A stretch of DNA of 63,231 bases, the filler included, from Collodictyon triciliatum (Eukaryota): the NCBI GenBank assembly GCA_043381765.1. It is 5 parts of 5 records of this genome, joined end to end, with 100 filler letters (N's around TTAATTAATTAA, not from the genome) between each part and the next. Parts side by side here need not be neighbours in the genome. Positions count along the whole stretch, not along the records: positions 23,285 to 35,525 come from JBHJMP010001704.1; 4 more parts are not named here. The stretch is one strand, 5' to 3'. Both the position numbers and the translations under genes were made by a program. Of the stretch, positions 14,610 through 50,946 are shown in pieces. How positions within the stretch are numbered: position 1 is the stretch's first letter; each line of letters opens with the position of its first letter. The notes under the pieces are model-generated. The model saw only the letters and a list, made by a program, of their open reading frames with translations. It was not told the DNA's origin and ran no database searches.

Positions 14610-15232
14610 TAAGGGAGCAGGGCCTTTGGTCTGTTTGAAGAAACTGTACGGAGTCACAACAGAAGAAGATAAGCGACACAGGGCCGCGTTGGTTCAGTGA
14701 AAGTATAGAAGCGGCGACGCAGATAATTAATTAATAAGCAACGATGTCAGTCGTGATTAACAAGAGCATCAAACAAGAGTGCCTGAAAATCTATACGAAA
14801 GGATGTGGAAGTTACTTTTCCTTTAGAGAGGGAGAAAAAAAAAATGGACACGATGAAAAAGATTTTAAAGAAAGGTTAGAAAAGTTAGAAGAGTGCTTTA
14901 AAAGGGGGGAATGCCCAAAGAATGCAAAGGAGGTAAGTAATAAAGAGAGAACTCAAATATAGTGATCAATGACTTTTATTTTCACCATCCTGCACAAAAT
15001 TGAAAGAAGAATAAAAAAAAATAAAAAAAAATATCAATGACTTTGATTCTACCTTGGCCTAGAATTTTAGCTATTCTTTTATTTTTATATTTTTCTCCTA
15101 TTTCTTCTATTTTCTTGTTTTTTTTTGTTTTTTTGTTTTTTTTGTTTTTTTTGTTTTTTTGTTTTTTGTTTTTTTTTTTTTTGTTTTTTTTTGTTTTTTT
15201 GTTTTTTTGTTTTTTTGTTTTTTTGTTTTTTT

Positions 15233-15332
15233 NNNNNNNNNNNNNNNNNNNNNNNNNNNNNNNNNNNNNNNNNNNNTTAATTAATTAANNNNNNNNNNNN
15301 NNNNNNNNNNNNNNNNNNNNNNNNNNNNNNNN
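15233..15332. other. Artificial contig-join spacer 44N-TTAATTAATTAA-44N (also at 23185-23284, 35526-35625, 50832-50931)
   Basis: Four identical 100-bp blocks; the 12-mer puts stop codons in all six frames. Confidence 0.95.
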
Positions 15333-23145: not shown

Positions 23146-23284
23146 AGCAAAGTTCTGCATATTTTTTCATGTAATAGACACAATNNNNNNNNNNNNNNNN
23201 NNNNNNNNNNNNNNNNNNNNNNNNNNNNTTAATTAATTAANNNNNNNNNNNNNNNNNNNNNNNNNNNNNNNNNNNNNNNNNNNN

Positions 23285-23315
<31 letters not shown>

Positions 23316-23317
23316 AA

Positions 23318-23384
<67 letters not shown>

Positions 23385-23469
23385 CCGACTTATACTCTAC
23401 GTAATAGATAAATAGAATCCACAGAGTTTATGCCTGTGCATTTCGCTCAAAGGACACACAACCGAGACG

Positions 23470-27847
<4,378 letters not shown>

Positions 27848-28322
27848 TTGTGTGTTTGATTGATTATTGATCATTATTGTTGTTCTTGTTGTTGTTTTTT
27901 TTAGGCTACTTGTTTGTTTTGTGAACGTGCTCAGAACGCCCCAGCCTCTGTGTAATGTTGTTTGTGTGTGCGTGTGTGTTGGTTGATTCGCTTGCGTGCT
28001 TTGTGCTTAACCCTGTCAATATCGTAGCTGGAAGAACAGGGAAGATAGCAGATAAAGGTTTTTGTGTGCGTGTGTTCGGGTTTGCCGTTATGTACAAATG
28101 TGGATTTAAGGGAGGAGGTGGCAGCCGAGTTGCATCACCCGGTGGGGTTTCGGGTTGTGGGTTGCGATTGGAATGACCGCTAATCCCGCAGGTAGAAAGC
28201 CAGCCAATGAGACAGCTAATATTCAGTCTCGGACAGATTTATTTATATAATGTAATGTTCTTCGTGTCATATTTTCGTTTGGAGTTTCAAAGTAAAAAAA
28301 AGAAAAAAAAGCTGACGCTATC

Positions 28323-31300
28323 TCATTTCTCATCTTTCTCGCAAATGCTGAAAACTCCAGATGCGCCATCCTTCCCCAGATGCGCTGCCGACCTTGTAAT
28401 TGAATCGCCCATCTGTTTGGTGCTCTCACTGAAAGAATGAGAAAGTCGCCTCGACAGAACACGCTTTAGCTCCAGAACAACATGCTCCTCACCAGAATCT
28501 GCCCAGGCTTCGATTCTCTCTTCAATATTTTCTTCAATATTTTCTTGAGAATATATACTAGAAAAATTCGATGAGAGTATCGCAACAGGAAACGCGATGA
28601 CCTGCACCAATATTGAGATTATATAAGATGTAAGAGAATTATCCCCAATCGCAGAAACATATTTCACGATATTGGATGGGTGTGTAAAGAGTAACACGTG
28701 GATGTTGTAGTTTCCATAGTTCATGCGGAAGGGCAACATAAACAAAGAAAATGTGTGTCAGTCGTATGATATACCAGGATTCCAGCACATATTACAAGCC
28801 CTGCAAATATTCTACCCCCGATTGTCAAAGGTGTAACATCACCTACGAAGACAAAATATTAGAATTGGTCAGGGTTTCTTATTCCTCTTCTTTTTAACAA
28901 CAACAACAACAACAACAACTGTTATCTTTTACGTTGTTATGAAATCTCAATAATATTGTAAATATGTTTCCAACTGATTAGTCATATATGCTTATAAAAA
29001 TATTACATACCATAACCAACTGTCGCCATAGTAACCACTGTCCACCAAAATGTATCTGGAATGGACTGAAACTTACTGCATATGTGGATGAGGTGTACCG
29101 TTAATTATACAATTTTTAAAGGGCACGATATTTGGACAAGAAAGCTTAATGCGATATGAAACAAATATTACAAAAGACTTTCTTGCAAATTTTGCCCCAT
29201 ACAATTCGAATATTTATTAAAAAAAAAAAAAACATATAATTGCATTCCACTCACAACTATATACCTTCGTGTGTCATTTATAATCCAAACATTATCCTTA
29301 AGTTCTCCTCGTTCCAAACACCACATAATTGAGGAAAACAAGACAACCAACACAAATTCTAACAATCCCAAAAGGAATAGGGAATCACTTGACAAATAGA
29401 GGGTATCAACTACTGCCTGATTTGGGTGATTATGAAAGCAGAGAAATGATTTAAATTTTTTTTGTGACAGGTAAATCAGAGTATGTTGTATGAATCACAA
29501 ATAATTATAAAGGAATGATTTAAAGAATGAGTTATTTTAGATTATGATACATGCGAGTATGACAAATACCAATGCACTTACAAAAAATTCACGGCTAATC
29601 TTAAATGTGGGGAACAAGTAAAATATACGAAAAGCCCAAAACAGGCGAACTGAGAGTAGACCTTGGAATGACTGTTCATGTAAATAAATGAATGCATATG
29701 TTAGTCGTATCATAGAAAGTATGAATAGGTAAAAGTTGTGTTGGGCATATTTTCCTATGTTTTTTTTACATCACATGAAGCAATACTTTGTCGTATGTGA
29801 TTGATACTATGAGCACAGCGAAACTGTAGAGTTCCAATATTATCTCCACCACTTCGATAATGGCATAATGTGGATTTTAGTGCTACAAAACTCTGTCTAA
29901 AATTGCTCATATGCATAATTTCGATAAAGAATGCTGTAAAATAAGTAAAATTCAAGACATGATGTTATTATAGGGTATATTATGAAGAAGAAAACCACTC
30001 ACGAATAAAGTTCTTTTCTTTATGTGGCGACATAATTTTACACAGTGCCTCGACGACGGACACGGATACAAGAATAGATTGAATTATCACTCTAAACAGA
30101 TAAATTGTAAGTAGACCATTTCAATATGTAATACATAGGTTGACTAATATCAAATTTTCTTGGTGGTTGCCCTTTGTCATATATGCTCTACGAGGGAAAA
30201 TGACAAAAGGTTTACAAATAATGAAGAGCTTCATTTGATATCTTTTCTGTCATTGAATACATCGCAAGCACCCCAGATAAGGTGTGTAAAATGCACGATA
30301 GGACGTTCCATTTTTTATGCTAGAGTGATTTAAGAGTGAGAATCACCAAGGGGTAGAAACTTATCATAATCAAATAGAAACAAGATGAAATATAACATGA
30401 GATTGTGTAATGTCGTATGCTCGTTCAAAGAGAGTCATGTTTCCCTCAGCACTCGCTGAAGCCTCCTAATTTAAGACAAAGATTATAATATAAAGAGATA
30501 TTGTAAGATTGTTAATAGAGAAAATGGTCATGATAATGAAAATTAGAATATCAAAAAAAAAAAAAAAACAATAACAATGATTATATATGAATTTAGATAA
30601 CAATATAGATAATATGTAGATTGACAGGCGATTTTTCTTTATGTTTTTTTAATGAGCTTGACGCTGTATTTCTAAACATGGGTGAATACCTTCGCTACAT
30701 CAGGTGATTCTTTTTCCTCTTCTACTGTTGACAGAGTCGGTTTCTGCAATTACACATATGTCATTGAGAGGAGATAAGAATGCTTTTTTTTTTATTCTTC
30801 CTTTCAATTTTGTGCAGGATGGTAGGGATGCTGGCTTTGGTTCGCTAGCCATCAATGCTTAATTTATTTCATCAGCATGATAAAATGAAATAATAATTTC
30901 TGGTAGATATAAATGATGAATATAGTTATTTCGTGCAATCTGGCTCATTGATAAGCCCTTTGAAAGAGCAACTTACATATGCACTCCCCGTAGACATGTA
31001 TTTGGCCCATTCATCGCAGAAACTGTTGCTGATAATTGTAATCGGAAGAGCAACGGTCTGAAAGTAAATTAGGCGATGATAAGAAGGTTAGTTTGCATGC
31101 ATCTCTATGAGAAAATTATACAGACTATCAATTCACTGTATCGAATATTCTGGCATAATGCTCACCAAAATACCGCAAATAACTGTAATTCCTGCGACAG
31201 ATTTACCCACCCAAGTATTAGGAATATAATCTCCTATGGCAAATAAATTTTTATGTTAAATTATCCATGGCAAAGAATTTCACCTTATATTGTAATTCTG

Positions 31301-32263
31301 ATTGAATTAGCTACATTTTTATAAAAATTCTCTAAATAAATTAATGGTGGATGCAAGCCAATAACTTAATGGATAGCTTACCGTAGCCAACAGTACTTAA
31401 AGTGACTATTGACCACCAGAAAGTCTCAGGTACACTTTGGAATTTACTCCTGAGGCATTTTCCGAAATAAACATTATAATTTTGTATCAGACAATCTAAC
31501 CAATGAATACAAAGGAATTCAAACCTTTGGCCATTATAATACCATCCTTTTCCATCCACAAAAGTGCCACGTTCAAAGTAAAACATAATCGAGGAAGACA
31601 AAATGACCTCGACTCCAAGAACGAATAGAAGCAGCATTAAAACATCCAAGTTTTTCTTAAAGGACTTGTTTATGCACTGTAGTATAAATAATATTCAGTC
31701 CATGTTCTTCAGGAAGAAAGTCATGATAGTTCTAAATTTAATATCTGGACCGTGATAATTCTGTATATTTGCCATAAGTACTTTAAGTATATCAGGTTCT
31801 CAGAATAAATGGGATTATTTATTTGTATCTTGTAGTGCAAATACCTTAAAAATATGAGACGACCTGGAATACTTGAAAATTTTAAATAGCCTGGCCAATC
31901 GAATGACACGTAAGATTGAAAGACTTGGGACGCTCTATATTGTTCACATGTTGGTTATTCATATCCATATTGAAAAGCAAAAATTATTTCTCGATATTTT
32001 TTAACGTTTTTTTTTTAAAAGCCACATCTTCACCATCCTGCACAAATTTGAAAGGAATAATAATAAAAAAAAAATGTTTCTGCTTCTTCCTATATTACAA
32101 TTCCTGGAATAAGTCCCAGATAGTAAGGCAATATTGACGCTAAATCCAAGAAGGTTGTGACAGCTAAATAGGAAGGGATAAGGAGAGTCATTGCATTAAA
32201 TAATTAATTTATTTTTTTGTAAAAGATTAAATTCAATCTTTTGCTTCGATGTGGCAAAGGATC

Positions 32264-32362
<99 letters not shown>

Positions 32363-35304
32363 GAAGAAGAATAAGTAAATATGTGAATATTTATAAAAAT
32401 ATCTCACACATTCGATATCTGACCGCTTTAGGTGTTAAAATGGATGTAATAATGAATTCAATTGTAAAGAAGATAACGATGGCTGTTTCGAGATAAAATC
32501 TGCAAATAAATGTAAGGTTCAATATAAAATAAAATATAAGAATACATAAACACATATTTTAATAGGGAAATATATTTTTATTGAATTCAAAAAATCAAAC
32601 AATACATGTCATTTTGGTTCCCATAACCCCTGGTACTGTCGTACGACACTGCGATGACAGACACGATTACAATTATCATGTATGCCTTATGTAGTCTTGA
32701 TGCCTTTGTATAAAATAAAATAATAAAATAAAAAAAAAAGGAGAGAAGGAAAGGGTCCATTAGCTATATTGCATCGACATTTATTTATTTTTTTAAAAAA
32801 AGGGGAAGAAACGCGGTATTTTAAATTTTGCAATAATATATGAACAATCATACAGCTAGAGAAAAATTTGGATCCCTAAATAAGAAATATAGCCTTCTTG
32901 GGTGATAATTGGGCAGCAAGGAAGCTTCAATTTTCTGTCATAAAAGAGATAAGCAAATCTATAAATTGATTTTGTATGCGCCATTGTCTAATAAATTACC
33001 ATTTGTTCCCGTTGCTGTATATACTCCTTTTCAGACGTATTCAAACCCTCTAATACACTAGAAGGAGGCTTTTTCTTCCACTCCTTGGAGAAGTTGTTTC
33101 CTTTTTCGATATTTTTTAATAGAGATAATAGGTACCTCTCAGTGTAATATTGCGGTATATATTTTTAGTATGGCACGTTTATGTGGTGGAACTTAAAAAA
33201 AAATTCACCGAGGACAGCCACGGGAAACGCCATAACCTAATATTATTTAGAGATTTATTTTAGAACCTTATAAATTAATAAAGTAAAAGAACGATGGCTA
33301 GCGAACCAAAGCCAACATCTTCACCACCCTGCACAAAATTGAAAGGAAGAATAAAAAAAAATAAAGTAAAAGAAAAAGTAAAAATTTTTTGGGTTGTTTC
33401 CATCTGGAACCCCTCAAAAACTTCTGGTTTTATTAATGTGTTGAATATGATGGGAATAAAACCATCCATCCTATGACAGCTGTTGCCGCACCGAATAGCC
33501 TTCCAGTGAATGTCTTTGGTGTTATGTCACCTTATGTAATCGTTTCTCCTTTATTATCATTGAATACAACATTTTCTTCATACAATTTTAAAAACTGTTG
33601 TGTTTTGCTCATTGCATGAATATTTTCATAATATATTGATTATAGGAATTTTCTCGTTCATATTGACAAAGAAAACCATATCCCAGGGTTGATATTGTCT
33701 GAATACACCACCAGAAAGTAACCAGGACTGAATTGAATTCACTTAAATAATAATGAAAATTAAAATTTAAGTTGCCCTAATCTCATATAGATGGTGCTCA
33801 AATATCTAAATTAGTGAGAAAACAAACCTTTTATAACAAACATTATCGATGTATTCTGCACAAAATTTCCCATCAATATAATCTCCTCTTTCGATGTAAT
33901 ATACAATGGAGGATGACAAGACAAGGAGTATAGGCAGGATGAATATGAGCAACATTAATTCTTTCTTTGAAGATTTTATCGTCCTGAAAAGAACCTAGAT
34001 TGTTGTGAAATGATCAAGATTGAAAGAAAAAAACAAAAATAAACGATAATAACATCAGTAATCATCGATACACAAGATTGATATGTAAAACTCAAACCTT
34101 GAAATCTTGGGAATACTTTCCCAACCGCAACACCCGAAATATGCGAACCAGTCTGATGATACGCAGAACTATAAGCCCTTTGGCACTCTAACAACGACAA
34201 GGGTTACACCAATTCAATTCAATTTAATTCCGTTCAATCACGATAAAAAAAAAAAAACGGTAATGTTTGTAAATAATTCATTCGTAAAATAGTCATATTG
34301 TTAATCATTTTTCCTCTATTCGATTCAAGGGAGGGAAGGGTTCTTAGTGTCATATGGTTTATCATATTACATTTTCTTATATTTGTTTCAAGTTGATTTC
34401 ACATATCATGTTTTAGATTCTAGTGAATAAAAAAAAAAGGGCTACTTATTTACATACCCTTGTCGTAAGTAAATCCAGAAAGTAAGGAAATATTGTCAAT
34501 AAATCAATGACATTAAACCCATCTGTTTTATATGCAATAAGATTAAGGAGAAACAAAAGAAAAATGTGGGCTGGACCTTCAAGTGTCAAAATCTACCTTG
34601 AACTGATTAAAATATGTTTCTTAATTATTATAAATTTTAGGTAACAATTTCACCTTTCATGAAATCAACTCGGCTATCAGCTGTTGAAAACCGAATAGCA
34701 TAGTCAGTGATAAATACAACAATCACGAATGTATCCAGGGCGAATCTATTGAAAAAGAAGACAATATAGAAATTTCGAGCTGTTCAGGTCTTTAAACTAT
34801 TTCATCCCAGTTTTTATAGAGGGCGAGTTGCCAAAAAAAAAAATTGATATATTCCTATGATCACAAGACATCGTATTATATTCTTCTTGACTCACATGAT
34901 TCTTCTGTTTTCTTGATTGAATGGTTCCACGGTACTCATGAGGAAAAGAATGACAGAAAATACCACAGTGGCAAGCATCGATATACTTATCCATAGGGCC
35001 TATGATTAATTTTATGACACAAACAACTAATCATATAAGTTTTCCATTTCATTAAGTAATATTAATTAGAGATATATGATGATAAAATATGTGAGCAAAT
35101 AAGCACAGTGCCTTGTAAATAAGTAAAATAATTGGTAAAATGAGATGAAAATAATATGAAAAGGCCCCATGAGAAGTAGAAAAAATAATTTTTCGGACGT
35201 AAAAGACCAATAAATTAGAATGTGATGAAATTAGTAAATTTTACATGTGTAGAGTAGTTTGGGTCACTGAATGTCAAGTAAACTTTCTTTCTCCAAGAGA
35301 TATC
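28323..35304 (-). CDS. Concatenated voltage-gated K+ channel with at least three tandem 6TM (S1-S6) units in one reading frame; 5' end lost at the contig join
   Basis: Unit A (35304-33000): S4 [17 protein letters not shown], pore [15 protein letters not shown]. Unit B (32934-30690): S4 [14 protein letters not shown], pore [15 protein letters not shown]. Unit C (30465-28323): pore [15 protein letters not shown], ending ...EKDEK*. Linker exons are open and in phase. Confidence 0.88.
30784..30853 (-). repeat. Dispersed ~70-bp poly(A)-tailed repeat (family A); other copies at 14981, 24564, 32018 and 33293
   Basis: Shared core CACCATCCTGCACAAA(A)TTGAAAGGAA(GA)ATAAAAAA, found in both orientations. 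Confidence 0.85.
34308..34342. repeat. Dispersed short repeat (family B), TTTTCC(C)CT(T)TATTCGATTCAAG; other copies at 5483, 11708, 20209 and 24491
   Basis: Recurrent (AT)TCGATTCAA core preceded by a T/C tract; two copies extend into G(A/G)AAGGAAGGGTT-like sequence. Confidence 0.7.
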
Positions 35305-35475
35305 CTTTTTTTTCAAAGATGTGAATGATAATGAATAATTTTGATTGAGTAAAGAGTACAATCAGTCTAGAGCAAATAATTGGAAAAAAAATCAACCCTA
35401 CGGAATGATGAAAACCCCCCAGATTTTAAAATAATTTCACTTTTCTTTTACTTTAATAGAAATGAAGGTATCTTT

Positions 35476-35525
<50 letters not shown>

Positions 35526-36754
35526 NNNNNNNNNNNNNNNNNNNNNNNNNNNNNNNNNNNNNNNNNNNNTTAATTAATTAANNNNNNNNNNNNNNNNNNN
35601 NNNNNNNNNNNNNNNNNNNNNNNNNATCTCCTAACCCCGAAAGAAATCCCCTTAAACTACCATTCGGACTGACGTGAATATGGTTAACATAGGAGGCCTC
35701 AAGGCAGTCTTCGTTACTTATCCGAAAGGATACCCCAAATCGAAGGCAACACAAGAACCAGCGCCCACCAAAGATAGTCTGTTTACCCTGCCCCAGCCCG
35801 TCTCACCGAGAACCAAGGAGCAAGAGCAAAAAGCACAAGTCGAATTCATGCTATAACTTCACACACCAAAGACATTCCGAGCAAGCAGGAGCGTATGTTA
35901 CTAAAACCACAAACGCGTATCCATACTCCGGTTAAGCAAAGTCCACTGCCGGCTACGCATGGCTCCGAAACCAGGGGACGGTCAAGCGCCACTTCTGATA
36001 ATACCAGACAAACAACGATGTATCGCTTTCTGACTGAGTCTCCCAGCAAGGAACGCAAGGAAAGTGACCCGTTGTCCCCTCAATAGACTCACCCTGTGGA
36101 GTGAAATAGGATGTAAACATTGTCTGAGATAGATGGTTGAATGGACTCGTCGGAATCGATTTGAGAAGTAACTGCCATGTGCGTACTTTCATCGACCCGA
36201 CAACTTTATTCACTCTTCTGTCAGTCTCGAATACACCCAGAAATCGCGTTGGATTTGAATCACCTCGGGTAGAGTAGTCTGCGTGTGAGATCACCTTTTC
36301 TCTTTTATATATTCTTTTTCTTTTTCATTTCCCTTCCTTCCAAGACACAAAAACTCCAACCACACAATCCGGGGTTTTCCACTGTCTAGTCCACAGCTCA
36401 TTTCTTGTCCTAGAGGCGAAGGCGGTTTCCTCGGCTTTGTTTTCTCTCAATAAACTGTTGAAGTCAAATAAATTAATCCTCTCATGCGGTGTGCTGCGGA
36501 TATTTCGGCCCGTCCTCGCCTCCACACGACGCTATTTATTTTGTTTTAAAAAAAATCGCATAAAAACAAACAAAAGTTAAGTTTGATTTTGTTGTGGGAG
36601 TGTCTAGCTTGGCAAGTACCCAGACAGACCCTTTCACTCAAACGGGGGTATGTTGGCGAGTCACTTTATTCATCTAAATGTTGTAGACAGACTTTTTTCC
36701 TTTTTTCCTCTTTTTTTTGGGTGCTGATTTGTCTTATTGTGTACCGATTATGGG

Positions 36755-39363
36755 TTAGGCGCTTGAGGAAGGCGATGCTTCCTTGGATTGGCACTTTCCT
36801 GAACCGCAGCCCATACCACTGGCGCCGCACGAACCGATTGGGGCGGATTTCGGCTCTTCTATGTGCTCGTAAGTTGGTGGCTTACCCTGTCAGGCACGAA
36901 GTCAAGATGAGTGATAGATTCATGGAGCAGCAGAGTCAATATCAGGTAAGAAACTTCTTCGTGCATATCTCTCTTTGCACACACAATATACCTTCTGAAC
37001 AATGGGATGATATTATATTTGAAATGTCAAGAGCTGTGGGAATTATAGGGATTACCTCAAGGCCCAAAATCTCGAATAGCACAGCATCTTCATTCTTTGC
37101 ATTATTGGGAGTAGTCAAAAGCTAGGATTCCGTGTTCATCGGAATTAATCACCTTTGCTGTTCATAGATACCGACAAACACCATGGGTCTCATATTTATA
37201 TTTGCACATGCATAGGGAACTGTGGATACCTTGTCACCAGTGAAGATAGAATTGGCTCCAGAGAAGAAACACATGGCCTGCTCTGGTAGACTGAATAGAG
37301 AAGATGCAAAATTGGCATTTTGATTCATATGCACCTTCCACTAGCTAGATATATGGGTGTATGTGTAATCCCAAGGACAGAAACCTCATCGACACACGCC
37401 CGGCAGAGAGACGGACCATAGAGCGGGGCATTACGATTCTTGCTGCACAACGTACGTGATATTGCACAGAGTGAAGAACAAGTAATTCAAGTTAGAACGG
37501 TCACAATATCGGTGGTTTTATGGACACCAAGTATAAAATCGGTGATTTAAGCATTTCAGAGTTAGAAACCTGTGGATATCATACGAAGCATGTCCCAAAT
37601 TGGCACCCGGGGTTGTTGTTCCAAGGGGGTTCCTTCCACTGAGCAAGAGAATGGATAGAGTCAGATAGATATATCACATAGAAATACGTAGACTTGGGTG
37701 TATAATATGTAAGCTTGGGTAGGCGGAGGCCATCACTACTGCCCACTTTTGGTCAATCACTCATTCTGGTCAAACCTGGGACTAAGGCATTGACAGGAAC
37801 GGATTCAGGGTGGGTTGGAAGTGTGCTGAGCGTGTGAAGCAGCTTGATTCTATCATCAACAGACTCTCCAAGCCCAACAATACCACCGCAACATACTAGA
37901 GTGTTGTGGTGAAGTATTATTTTTAGTGCGACAGGTTTACTTTAAAGGATGTCTTTTCCCCCACTAAATCTTAAACCCACACTGCTCTTGCAGATATCAA
38001 ACGAACCAGACCATTAATTCCAGCTTCGCGGACGTTCTTTAGGGTTTCGAGGCGATTTTCGTATGTACGAGTCGTGATGATTTGAGGATAGTATTCCTTG
38101 CTGCAGGGATAGGATGATATTGGGATAGGTATATTTACGGCATGAGAGTAGAGCATATAATAATAATAAGCACATTGAAAGCAAAAACAACGGAGAAGCG
38201 GTTTGCGAGTGGTTTCACCTGGTATCCAAATTGTGGTTGTAGGCGGTGAGTCCAGCCTCCTTCAGTGCCTTGGCATGTTCCGGGGTAATCATCCCGAGCG
38301 TGCAGCATACCTCCATGTCCATCGAGCGGACTTGGCGAACCATTTCGAGGACCTTGTGTTTTGCGCACCGTGAATGAGGTATACTTTAAGTTTCACGTCA
38401 TAAGCAAACATGAATAAACCATCGCTTGCATATCAAGACAACAGAACAAGAACAGGCAAGCGAGAACCAATTACGCTCCCATCTTTTCATCACAAAGATA
38501 AAATAGCTGGTGAGTGGAAACGACTGTGCGGCATAGAACAATGGAGCACACAGAAAGTTTCTAAACGAAAAGATTCATTCGTGCCAGAAAAAAAAAAGGC
38601 ATCAAAGGAAGGAGCGAAAGACGAGCGCGTCTTGAGGGAAAGCGAATACCTGGTTGAACTGCCACTTTCCAGTGACCTCTCTCCACGCAGCACCCATGCA
38701 AAAGCGTGTGCTTCCCGCGCGCTTAGCTGTGGCCGCCACGTCAACCACGTCTTTGACGCTCATCAGCCTCTCTGCTTTCACAGTTGTGTTGTACTTTGAG
38801 GACTGAGGACAATACGAGCAGTTTTCCGGACACCCGCCCGTCTTGATGGAAAGCAGAGTGCACTGCTGAACTTGTCTGCAGAGGAAGACATACGAGGAAA
38901 TAGGTCTTGTCAGCCGATGTCTTTTCACAGAAGAACATCCCTGCTTCTTTTGCCGTCCAACTGCCGAGCATGTTTCCTTTCCTTTTTTTTCCTTCCATAA
39001 TGCAACAACAACAAAATGCAATAACAACAAGAAAAGAAAAAAAATGATAAACGAACAGGGAGGTGAGTGGGAAGAGGTAAAGGAAGAGGGAGGCTGCTTC
39101 GTCAGCGAGATAATGTACCGGGAATCGTGGTAAAGGCGATGGACTGTGGCGGCCTCGTAGCAGAGATCGAGCAGCGGCTTGTTGAAGATGGTCTGCACCT
39201 GCTCGAGTGTCCAGTCATTGCGGATGGGATACTTTGCCTTGAGCGCTTCAGCAGCTGCGGGCGGGAGCGATTCGTTGGCCACGGAGAAGAAGAAGCGCGA
39301 CGAGGATGGGACGGCAGCGCGCGAGAGGAGGCGCTGAGCAGCAGACTTTGGCACCGACAGCAT
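36755..39363 (-). CDS. BIO2: Mitochondrial biotin synthase (radical SAM), multi-exon
   Basis: Transit-like N-terminus, then [31 protein letters not shown] (CxxxCxxC), [33 protein letters not shown] and [17 protein letters not shown]. Confidence 0.97.
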
Positions 39364-40237
39364 CAGGAGTGGAGGCGCCTTTACTTGGCTAGGAAGAAGA
39401 AAAAAACAAAGACTAGTATATTATCATTAAAAGAGAAATTATACATATGCATATAAGAATATCTATCAGCAAAAGAATAGAAAAAATGAAATGAAAGTGT
39501 GGAATATTCTCAGGGTCACAAGTTTGGGTCGGGATGACAATCGTAGCTTCTTGGCTTCAGAAGCAAGACAGAAACCCCACACAACTGCTTTTCAGCGCTT
39601 GTTGGCAACAAGAACGAGGCGGTTGTAAAAGGACACGACTCTTTTGATATGATTTCATTGGGTTGGCTTTTGCGCTGCTTTGCGGATTGGGTTTGGCGTG
39701 CGAGTGTTTTCCTTTGTGCCTGTGGGAAAGAATCACTCGTGCAAGCTTGATTGATCTCGCAGATGACGGTTTATGACGTGATATTGCTTCGCCAAGCGGC
39801 TTTTTCCAGGAGTGGATATTGTTCTGCACAGTTCCACGAATGCGGCACACACGCGCCTGCATTTTTCAGACACGCGTCAAAGCCACGAGCACATATCGTA
39901 CATCAACAGTCGTATATTAGATACCGTATAGTTTGTATGACATGTTTCGGTGAATTTGTTTTGTTTTGGGGTATCGGTATCGTGCCCATTCTACATCACA
40001 GGGTGATCTGGTGGCTGCCAAAGGCAAGAAGCAGGATGTTCTGTGTGTGGCGGTGTGCAACCGCACTCAGTTCGGCTACGCTTGTATTCGAAGATCCCCT
40101 GGAACCCTCGGTTGTTATCTCCCAATAAGCCGAGCATTCTCGTCCATAGATCATGCAAGCAGGCTTGAGCCCCAACAAAGCTAGCCAGCCCAACACTCAC
40201 TGATCTTGGTCATTTTCCAGAGACAGTCTTTACAACA

Positions 40238-41108
40238 ATGACAGACTTCAACTCCGTCGCCCAGGCCTTTGTCACCTACTACTACCAGACTTTTGACTCC
40301 AACCGCGCCAACCTTGGCCCCCTCTACGTGAGTTCCGCAACTTAGCTATGAAAACTCTCCATAGCCTTTCCATCTTTACTCTCTCGCGAGCGCGTCCTTT
40401 TCGTTTCACCCGGGGCTGGCCTGCTACAGACTTCCCGCTACTGTATAAGAAGCCCTGTTCTTTCTCTTCTTTCTCTTCCTCTTTTTGTGGACTTACACAG
40501 ACATCACACGCTCTAGCGCCCGGAATCCATGCTCTCGTACGAGGGAGCAAACATTCTCGGACAAGAAGCGATCGTCCAGAAGCTTGTGGTGAGTTTTCTT
40601 TCATTTTTTTCTGCTTCATCATGAGTATCAAAGCATCCTCTATTATCGTTCCCAAACGCGTCTGACAAAGAGAAACTGGAGCAAAAGACAAATGAATCAA
40701 CCCGATAAAACGCACGTAGTCTCTCACGTTCACAACCATCCGTCACCACGTGGACACCCTCGATGCGCAGCCCGGCGTGAACGGCACTGTTGTTGCCTTT
40801 GTGACCGGCAAACTCGCTGTACGTATTCAGCTGTCTGAGAACCCAACACCCGTCTGTGTGCCCAACGCACCCGGCCACGAGCACAAAACGACAATCTGGC
40901 TCACTGTTTTCACTCCTTTCGCTCGGAACAAACTTCCTCCACAATCCAACGAATGACTTGCCCTTGTTTGCTGACTATCCCTCACCCTGTCCAGGTCGAC
41001 AACGACTCGAGTATCATCCGCTTCTGCCAAACCTTCCAGCTCGCCCCGATTCCCGGCGGCTCTGGCTACTTCTGCTACAACGACATGTTCCGCCTTGTCT
41101 ACGGTTAA
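40238..41108 (+). CDS. NTF2: Nuclear transport factor 2, 4 coding exons
   Basis: MTDFNSVAQAFVTYYYQTFDSNRANLGPLY/RPESMLSYEG...AIVQKLV/SLTFTTIRHHVDTLDAQP.../VDNDSSIIRFCQTFQL...YFCYNDMFRLVYG*. Confidence 0.96.
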
Positions 41109-41534
41109 GCCCTCGACTCAAGTAAAACGATATCAAAATGAGAGATAAGCAAGTCAGGCAAACATCCTTCGATACGCGATAAAAAAAAGAATCAAAGAAA
41201 AAGCCAAACGTAGGCTGCATCACCACCCGATTGAAGTCGTGCACTCAGAAAGCAGCAGATAAGAAACTCTTTCAACTTGTTCCGCAACTTGAGCAATCGC
41301 TAAATCATTTCCTGCCAAGCCCGATAAGCCAACAACAGCATCTTTTGTTTTTGTTTTCTGTTTTCAACGACGCTGCTTTATCATTCCGATGAGATGGAGA
41401 AAAAAATTGTGGGGCCGTGGGTGTGTTGAGCAAAGTATTCTGGTTGCTGCATGTTGCCCACCCGGCAGAAAGAGGAGGAATGAGACACGCAGGTTTTGCC
41501 CCAGCCGCATCGCCCCATCTTTTGCCGAGGTGAT

Positions 41535-44371
<2,837 letters not shown>

Positions 44372-50831: not shown

Positions 50832-50946
50832 NNNNNNNNNNNNNNNNNNNNNNNNNNNNNNNNNNNNNNNNNNNNTTAATTAATTAANNNNNNNNNNNNN
50901 NNNNNNNNNNNNNNNNNNNNNNNNNNNNNNNAAAGAAAAAAATAGT

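Follow-up and report, generated by a model that had tools for sequence, protein, structure and literature searches.

The stretch of DNA considered here, hereafter called the window, comprises 63,231 nucleotides (nt) of Collodictyon triciliatum (assembly GCA_043381765.1) and consists of five contig pieces joined by artificial linkers. On the contig at positions 23285-35525 (JBHJMP010001704.1), six-frame translation of the minus strand revealed three complete, diverged Shaker-like six-transmembrane (6TM) units between 28323 and 35304, called A, B and C in coding order. They very probably constitute the 3' three quarters of a gene for a single-chain, four-domain (24-TM) K+ channel of the Shaker type, with A, B and C as domains II, III and IV. 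It also appears likely, if a little less so, that the gene represents a previously undescribed family of 24-TM Shaker-type K+ channels, which would have four diverged Kv domains in fixed order, neither a T1 domain nor a cyclic-nucleotide-binding domain (CNBD), a conserved charge-poor fourth sensor, and a pseudotetrameric architecture that arose independently of those of Nav/Cav and CNGK channels.

The three units share 28-34% pairwise identity. Splice sites and reading frame define 29 coding exons and 28 introns of 65-270 nt, all with GT-AG borders, and the spliced model is a single open frame of 2670 nt coding for 889 residues, with a sole stop, the TGA at 28325-28323. In this model, the selectivity filters read TLGYGD in unit A (33689-33526) and TVGYGD in units B (31394-31229) and C (29023-28838), and every GYG filter is interrupted by an intron. 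The inter-unit linkers, of 45-60 residues, are too short to accommodate a T1 domain before B or C, or a C-linker followed by a CNBD. An earlier reading of the sequence (hereafter the first-pass annotation) had reported three GYG pore exons, which we found at the same places in the six-frame translation and in the spliced model. It had also described five exons between and around the units (33100-33000, 32934-32854, 31057-30977, 30743-30690 and 30465-30397), a single terminal stop at 28323 and the lack of T1 between units, and here too our model agrees with it, down to the AG/GT borders and phases of those exons. Contigs from three public runs (X1, X2 and X3, belonging to one study and labelled 'RNA?' as a guess) were aligned to positions 27900-35525, and the features of the locus are as follows.

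28323-35304, minus strand: visible portion of the gene; 29 coding exons, 2670 nt, 889 residues plus stop; 5'-incomplete, cut by the contig end at 35525
33000-35304, minus strand: unit A, assigned to domain II; drawn from splice sites and frame, with borders that agree with X1 records 4 and 6 and with the bin cover
Exons of unit A: 35304-35245, pre-S1; 34999-34896, S1; 34745-34654, S2; 34522-34458, S3; 34187-34098, S4; 33994-33828, S5; 33741-33677, pore helix and TLGY; 33530-33463, S6; 33236-33209 and 33100-33000, S6 end and A-B linker
30977-32934, minus strand: unit B, assigned to domain III; five joints in X1 contigs (31934>32099, 31676>31845, 31448>31524, 31232>31381 and 31057>31166), four upstream exons from splice sites, frame and bin cover
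Exons of unit B: 32934-32854, pre-S1, no Met; 32703-32606; 32499-32408; 32163-32099; 31934-31845, S4; 31676-31525; 31449-31382, TVGY; 31233-31166; 31057-30977, S6 end
30690-30743, minus strand: B-C linker exon; 54 nt, phase 0 to 0, 18 residues, acidic; joints 30743>30977 and 30464>30689 in X1 record 2
28323-30465, minus strand: unit C, assigned to domain IV; nine exons, all in X1 record 2 and five also in X2 record 7
Exons of unit C: 30465-30397, pre-S1; 30319-30216; 30091-30003; 29851-29787; 29671-29582, charge-poor S4; 29416-29265; 29075-29011, TVGY; 28842-28775; 28601-28323, S6 end, 75-residue tail and stop
28084-28322, minus strand: 3' untranslated region, minimum extent; X1 records 1 and 2, like X2 record 7, run along 28084-28599 with no joint
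35305-35525, minus strand: beginning of the intron that precedes the first visible exon; AT-rich, with poly(A/T) up to the contig end; no contig from any of the three runs
35526-35625, no strand: artificial contig join, N44-TTAATTAATTAA-N44

Intron positions and phases are identical in the three units. Each opens with a pre-S1 exon, and the following exons in A, B and C, respectively, measure 104, 98 and 104 nt for S1, 92, 92 and 89 nt for S2, 65 nt in all three for S3, 90 nt in all three for S4, 167, 152 and 152 nt for S5, 65, 68 and 65 nt for the pore and 68 nt in all three for S6. Such conservation of intron positions and phases indicates an internal repeat of the whole unit rather than a chance pattern. 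With identities of only 28-34% among the units, the repeat is of old date and does not stem from recent tandem duplication. The filters and S5-P-S6 regions are canonical in all units. Arg or Lys residues occupy six of the six S4 positions in register in units A and B but three in unit C, which has also lost the S3 PY motif and the S2 arginine. In alignments, the units share with Shaker-family channels the pre-S1 motif, the six-charge S4, the FWW...TVGYGD pore and the ALP...SNF end of S6. By sequence, the nearest solved structures are Kv1.3, Shaker and Kv1.2 (E ~1e-9 with an S4-S5-P read-through), followed by Kv4 and Kv2; Pfam searches on raw frames gave weak matches only, to Ion_trans (E 2e-5) and Ion_trans_2 (E 1e-4).

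The spliced contigs of X1 and X2 match at least 15 of the 28 introns exactly, over the span from 28601/28775 to 31934/32099. The joints listed are CT..AC on the plus strand, corresponding to GT..AG on the coding strand, and seven of them are repeated in X2. X1 record 2 (1113 nt) follows the exon chain 28298-31029 base for base: it holds 53 nt of the post-S6 exon of B (31057-30977), exons 30743-30690 and 30465-30397, and the whole of unit C, and its positions 438-588 and 834-937 fall on 29265-29415 and 30216-30319, respectively, as the model predicts. X1 record 3 (372 nt) runs from S4 of B through S5, pore and S6 to 57-58 nt inside exon 31057-30977, where the two records overlap by ~30 nt, with more than 31 letters bridging on both sides. 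Units B and C belong to one spliced transcript.

Regarding units A and B, the pre-S1 exon of B begins at an acceptor, has no Met and is preceded by an in-frame stop 3 nt upstream, and the first Met of this unit lies inside S1. The 108-nt intron 33208-33101 after S6 of A must be removed, otherwise a stop arises at ~33167. The bin cover around 33209>33100 (observed 3.33/3.36) is nearer the values for the spliced model (3.27/3.44) than those for read-through (2.73/3.97), and so the splice fits and read-through is rejected; in the ten other bins listed the spliced model agrees within 0.08. The A-B linker also aligns to the II-III linker of a single-transcript orthologue, P0155 (see below), with one 6-residue gap. 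From frame, homology and contig cover, we infer that A and B are joined in one chain. The proposal of the first-pass annotation that this is one concatenated Kv-type gene is thus supported, by spliced contigs for B-C, in which its junctions 30977>30743, 30690>30465 and 30397>30319 are all present, and by frame, lack of Met and stop, contig cover and linker match for A-B.

At its 5' end the gene runs off the contig. The first exon, 35304-35245, opens at an AG without a Met. In X1 record 6 (782 nt), positions 26-128 match 34896-34998 and a further 654 nt extend 5'; 60 of these fall on the contig, at exactly 35245-35304, and the bin 35295-35525 is covered at ten bases only, 35295-35304. The other ~594 nt lie upstream of the first exon, with none within 35305-35525, indicating that the contig join at 35526 truncates the gene, which had been expected to continue past it. 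The missing domain I and N-terminus should be in sequence lost at this join. Searches of the window by tblastn with 17 exon peptides from A-C, or with domain I of five relatives, found only the A, B and C exons, and Pfam analysis of the three minus-strand frames of 35626-42300 yielded only TIP49, Radical_SAM and BATS, with no channel exons. Identical linkers (N44-TTAATTAATTAA-N44), carrying stops in six frames, are found at 15233-15332, 23185-23284, 35526-35625 and 50832-50931. The linkers therefore give no assurance of the order, orientation or adjacency of the pieces; synteny is unsafe, and genes crossing joins are truncated.

Relatives with four units were collected by a HMMER search of 1.84 billion representative sequences, using as query a read-through of the S4-S5-pore region of unit B, in which stops and two in-frame introns appear as X or junk. 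This yielded 574 matches at E<=0.001, with multi-unit proteins ranking at the top. In the best 150 of these 574, the filter motif occurs once in 126 proteins, twice in 15, three times in 5, four times in 2 and not at all in 2. The best matches, P0003, P0005, P0006 and P0013, are Trinity open reading frames (ORFs) of Diphylleia rotans (EukProt EP00002). Full-length isoforms from their clusters (P0155, 1169 residues; P0157, 1148; P0158, 1160; P0164, 1439) and a fifth paralogue (P0282, 1167 residues) represent five paralogues of this species, with P0155, P0282, P0157, P0158 and P0164 corresponding to TRINITY_DN1150, DN10099, DN8850, DN2710 and DN4063, respectively. All five paralogues have four filter motifs and share a charge-poor S4 in domain IV. 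Pfam found four Ion_trans stretches, strong ones in the orthologues, in each of the five proteins scanned (P0155, P0157, P0158, P0164 and P0004, a Logan sequence) and neither BTB_2 (T1, PF02214) nor cNMP_binding in any of them. The spliced Collodictyon model aligns to residues 343-1139 of P0155 with 45% identity over 825 residues, colinearly through both linkers, and the alignment also covers the motif across the additional splice 33209>33100. The Diphylleia homologues are public under Trinity names only, with no functional annotation. A word-based homologue search with the S5-P ORF of unit B gave only two weak matches, so that Collodictyon's own protein seems to be absent from that collection.

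For a per-domain phylogeny, multi-unit proteins were cut at their filters. A quick tree of 51 rows gave long-branch warnings for the divergent paralogue Dr4063, and a careful tree of 39 rows was built without Dr4063 (4 rows), the two-unit protein x617 (2 rows), s_P0017, s_P0032, s_P0043 and s_P0048; in this tree, single-unit rows were limited to the first 12, Dr10099 was added, and no outgroup rooting was applied. Support is given as ultrafast bootstrap / Shimodaira-Hasegawa-like approximate likelihood ratio test (SH-aLRT). The sister of unit A is domain II of DN1150/DN10099 (100/100), within a clade of domain II sequences (99/97); the corresponding sisters are their domain III for unit B (100/97; domain III clade, 100/98) and their domain IV for unit C (100/98; domain IV clade, 100/99). 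The domain I sequences of the Diphylleia paralogues group separately, in a clade with support 98/93. The tree thus identifies A, B and C as the respective orthologues of domains II, III and IV. The position-specific clades imply that the four-domain order predates the paralogue expansion, and that the window gene corresponds to DN1150/DN10099 with domain I alone missing. Unit C is the most diverged of the three, with 39% identity to its orthologue. The suggestion of the first-pass annotation that the architecture is 4x6TM gains from these data, as the five Diphylleia paralogues carry four units per ORF and A, B and C are orthologous to II, III and IV; the fourth domain of the Collodictyon gene itself is deduced from its relatives.

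Other multi-repeat proteins were also observed. The two-repeat proteins P0009 (Rigifila) and P0007 (Logan) fall outside the I-IV clades, and so does P0004 (1748 residues), with its four Kv-like units, relative to the Diphylleia clades. P0047 (ENA, 1493 residues) and P0124 (952 residues) are unnamed proteins with three or four Kv-like 6TM units and GYG filters; judged by eye from the sequence, the four units of P0047 appear highly alike. Multi-repeat K+ channels may have arisen several times. Domains II and III form sister clades (92/91) in the tree without outgroup. Three animal predictions, P0049 (1004 residues), P0167 (1476 residues, Gigantopelta aegis) and P0131, contain two or three T1-6TM units. 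As T1 is retained before each unit, these appear to be tandem Shaker genes that gene prediction has fused, unlike the four-domain family.

Structure prediction was performed on the orthologue P0155. The AlphaFold2 model, based on an 11-row alignment, has a mean predicted local distance difference test (pLDDT) score of 66.3 and a predicted template-modelling (pTM) score of 0.66, with transmembrane blocks at pLDDT 70-87 and linkers below 50. In a Foldseek search of the PDB, the 50 best matches listed comprise nothing but four-domain channels in one chain (Cav, Nav, Nax or NALCN), aligned over ~1250 columns with TM scores of 0.57-0.64 and 12-15% identity. The model thus predicts a pseudotetramer fold, for the orthologue only.

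In the channel that we propose, domain I and a short N-terminus would be encoded beyond the contig join, and four non-identical 6TM domains, connected by cytoplasmic linkers of 45-60 residues, would surround one central pore. Lined by four T[VL]GYGD filters, this pore would select for K+, and the domains would form a pseudotetramer of fixed order like that of Nav/Cav channels; covalent linkage, by fixing stoichiometry and order, would render T1 unneeded. Domains II and III, together with domain I in the orthologues, have a six-charge S4 and acidic partners in S2 and S3 and would be expected to act as voltage sensors. Domain IV, whose charge-poor S4 is kept in all orthologues, probably has a specialised or non-sensing role.

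Several points count against this reading. The tblastn searches of the window recovered no domain I, and four domains are attributed to the Collodictyon gene by homology. The library type of the runs is a guess, and all come from one study. No single contig reaches from the pore of one domain to S1 of the next, as X1 records 2 and 3 share ~30 nt inside one exon; the A-B junction 33000>32934 does not appear in the 15 joints listed, and the bin-cover arithmetic cannot separate splicing there from the retention of 20 nt of intron. Some contigs are unspliced, such as X1 record 5 (190 nt, depth 3.7) at 34159-34351. The second proline of the Kv PVP hinge is substituted in all three units. The structural model is of medium confidence and represents an orthologue rather than the window protein, and AlphaFold may lean on known Nav/Cav folds. 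K+ selectivity, voltage gating and a shared pore are predictions from motifs and from this modelled structure.

A second unspliced contig, with a depth of about 5.5, also lies across the S3-S4 intron at 34159-34351. These contigs could reflect a retained intron, pre-mRNA or DNA in the run. Exon 34745-34654 has no contig (bin 34530-34784 = 0), there is little on 34522-34458, and run X3 has no contig on 27900-35525; no conclusion was drawn from these absences.

Among the other explanations, the one that fares best, unlikely as it is, holds that the gene encodes a true three-domain protein, which would assemble with a separate 6TM subunit in a 3+1 arrangement or would not be a channel, the ~594 nt upstream then being N-terminus and 5' untranslated region. 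Only three units lie within the window, and three-unit Trinity isoforms do exist (P0003, P0005 and P0006), yet these are shortened versions of transcripts that, in the same clusters, have four units, and the full-length isoforms of all five paralogues contain four filter motifs. The gene moreover nests within the paralogues as sister of DN1150/DN10099 at three positions, which would make a loss of domain I secondary; its first visible exon shares with the first exons of B and C, each of which comes after another domain, a phase-0 acceptor before the pre-S1 motif, and 594 nt exceeds what the 50-residue N-terminus of P0155 alone would need.

It is less probable still that the locus is a decaying or non-conducting relic, transcribed but with a degenerate domain IV, and perhaps more, and no working K+ pore. 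The missing S4 charges, S3 PY motif and S2 arginine of unit C and its standing as the most diverged unit (39% to its orthologue) would fit decay. Against this, the frame is intact over 889 codons, the three filters and S5-P-S6 regions are canonical, and the charge-poor S4 of domain IV is shared with the Diphylleia paralogues, which argues for a conserved specialisation.

That these are three ordinary tandem Kv genes with their own starts and ends, whose exons can be joined in frame by chance, is scarcely credible: tandem duplication of Kv genes is common, database proteins with two or three T1-6TM units (P0049, P0167) resemble fused gene predictions, and contig depth varies along the locus (25.6, 11.3, 8.6 and 6.8), though such depths cannot rank gene parts, but X1 record 2 splices the post-S6 exon of B through two linker exons to C, which largely refutes this explanation for B-C, the first exon of B has no Met and begins at an acceptor, no stop follows S6 of A or B once spliced, T1 is absent between the units, and the units are only 28-34% identical, each being orthologous to a fixed position of a four-domain Diphylleia transcript. 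We thus favour the 5'-truncated gene for a four-domain channel.

Turning to the surroundings, a dispersed repeat of ~50-70 bp is found in three introns of the channel gene (33293-33361, 30785-30853 in inverted orientation, and 32018-32074) and also at 14978-15025 and 24564-24605. Bins with this repeat reach depths of 300-450 in X1 and X2, and hence it is abundant in those runs; it could be an element resembling a short interspersed nuclear element (SINE) or a miniature inverted-repeat transposable element (MITE). Long (CTT)n, (AAT)n and poly(A/T) microsatellites are frequent (27140-27400, 32257-32377 and many more) and coincide with contig ends. The next contig carries, on the minus strand, a biotin-synthase-like gene at ~37056-38847, with Radical_SAM and BATS in different frames, which implies introns, and the 3' end of a gene for a TIP49/RuvB-like AAA+ protein at ~41879-44195 (TIP49, TIP49_C), with a Walker A motif in the ORF 43512-44195. 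A tRNA scan found none. A metazoan source for the sequence was considered and set aside, given the biotin-synthase-like gene and the protist transcripts that are the closest homologues.

If the proposed reading is correct, covalent pseudotetramers with non-equivalent voltage sensors have evolved repeatedly. Such a channel would provide a K+-selective system in which each sensor can be mutated singly without engineered concatemers, including for the contribution of the charge-poor domain IV. The analysis also flags a gene truncated by its assembly and points to unannotated four-domain homologues in public transcriptomes, including the apparently independent P0004 and P0047.

Kv channels are formed by four separate subunits, and Nav and Cav channels by four linked, specialised domains. 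Shaker channels of the Kv1-4 groups have one 6TM unit per polypeptide, four subunits and an N-terminal T1, whereas the window gene links at least three units; the likeness lies in the sequences, with Kv1.3, Shaker and Kv1.2 as best matches. With Nav, Cav and NALCN, the family would share a 24-TM single-chain pseudotetramer and non-equivalent voltage sensors, and the predicted fold of P0155 aligns with them over its full length. However, their filters are DEKA, EEEE and EEKE, whereas those of the window are all GYG, and identity is only 12-15%. As the units are closest to Kv1/Shaker, the likeness to Nav/Cav is best viewed as convergent architecture, and the independent origin proposed in the first-pass annotation fits with this proximity among solved structures.

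The Diphylleia rotans transcripts belong to the same family, with the same domain order, a charge-poor S4 in domain IV and neither T1 nor CNBD. They are complete, with domain I and an N-terminus of 50-170 residues, whereas the window copy has no domain I owing to the assembly gap. The caution of the first-pass annotation over precedents among multi-domain channels of protists was justified. In the literature searched, with subscription journals outside its scope, no four-repeat Kv-type channel without CNBD has been described. The main text of PMC7576140 includes neither Diphylleia nor other CRuMs taxa, and its supplementary tables might list such sequences. According to that 2020 paper, two-repeat Kv-like channels without CNBD occur in dinoflagellates, oomycetes and a chlorarachniophyte. 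Like the units described here, those are CNBD-less and Kv-like, arranged head to tail, with repeats less than 30-35% identical and one S4 poorer in charge (PMC7576140). They differ in having two repeats and presumably dimerising, compared with three repeats seen and four inferred in the window gene.

CNGK (tetraKCNG) channels, which occur in the sperm or cells of sea urchins, fish, cnidarians and choanoflagellates, have four linked 6TM repeats with GYG-type filters (PMC7576140, PMC4749565). A K+ channel with four linked 6TM repeats in one chain would be common to CNGK and the present family (three repeats seen here, four in the orthologues). CNGK has a C-linker and a CNBD in each repeat and is gated by cyclic nucleotides, whereas the Diphylleia orthologues of the window gene have no cNMP_binding domain, and the window units differ from it in being Shaker-like, with a full S4 in A and B and three of six charges in C. 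In the trees of PMC7576140, the repeats of CNGK and Nav/Cav pair as I/III and II/IV, unlike the II/III sister relation in the Diphylleia/window family, which hints at a different order of duplication. Altogether, the window gene is a 5'-truncated member of a four-domain Kv-type family, a variant of the known multi-repeat channels and not a new category.

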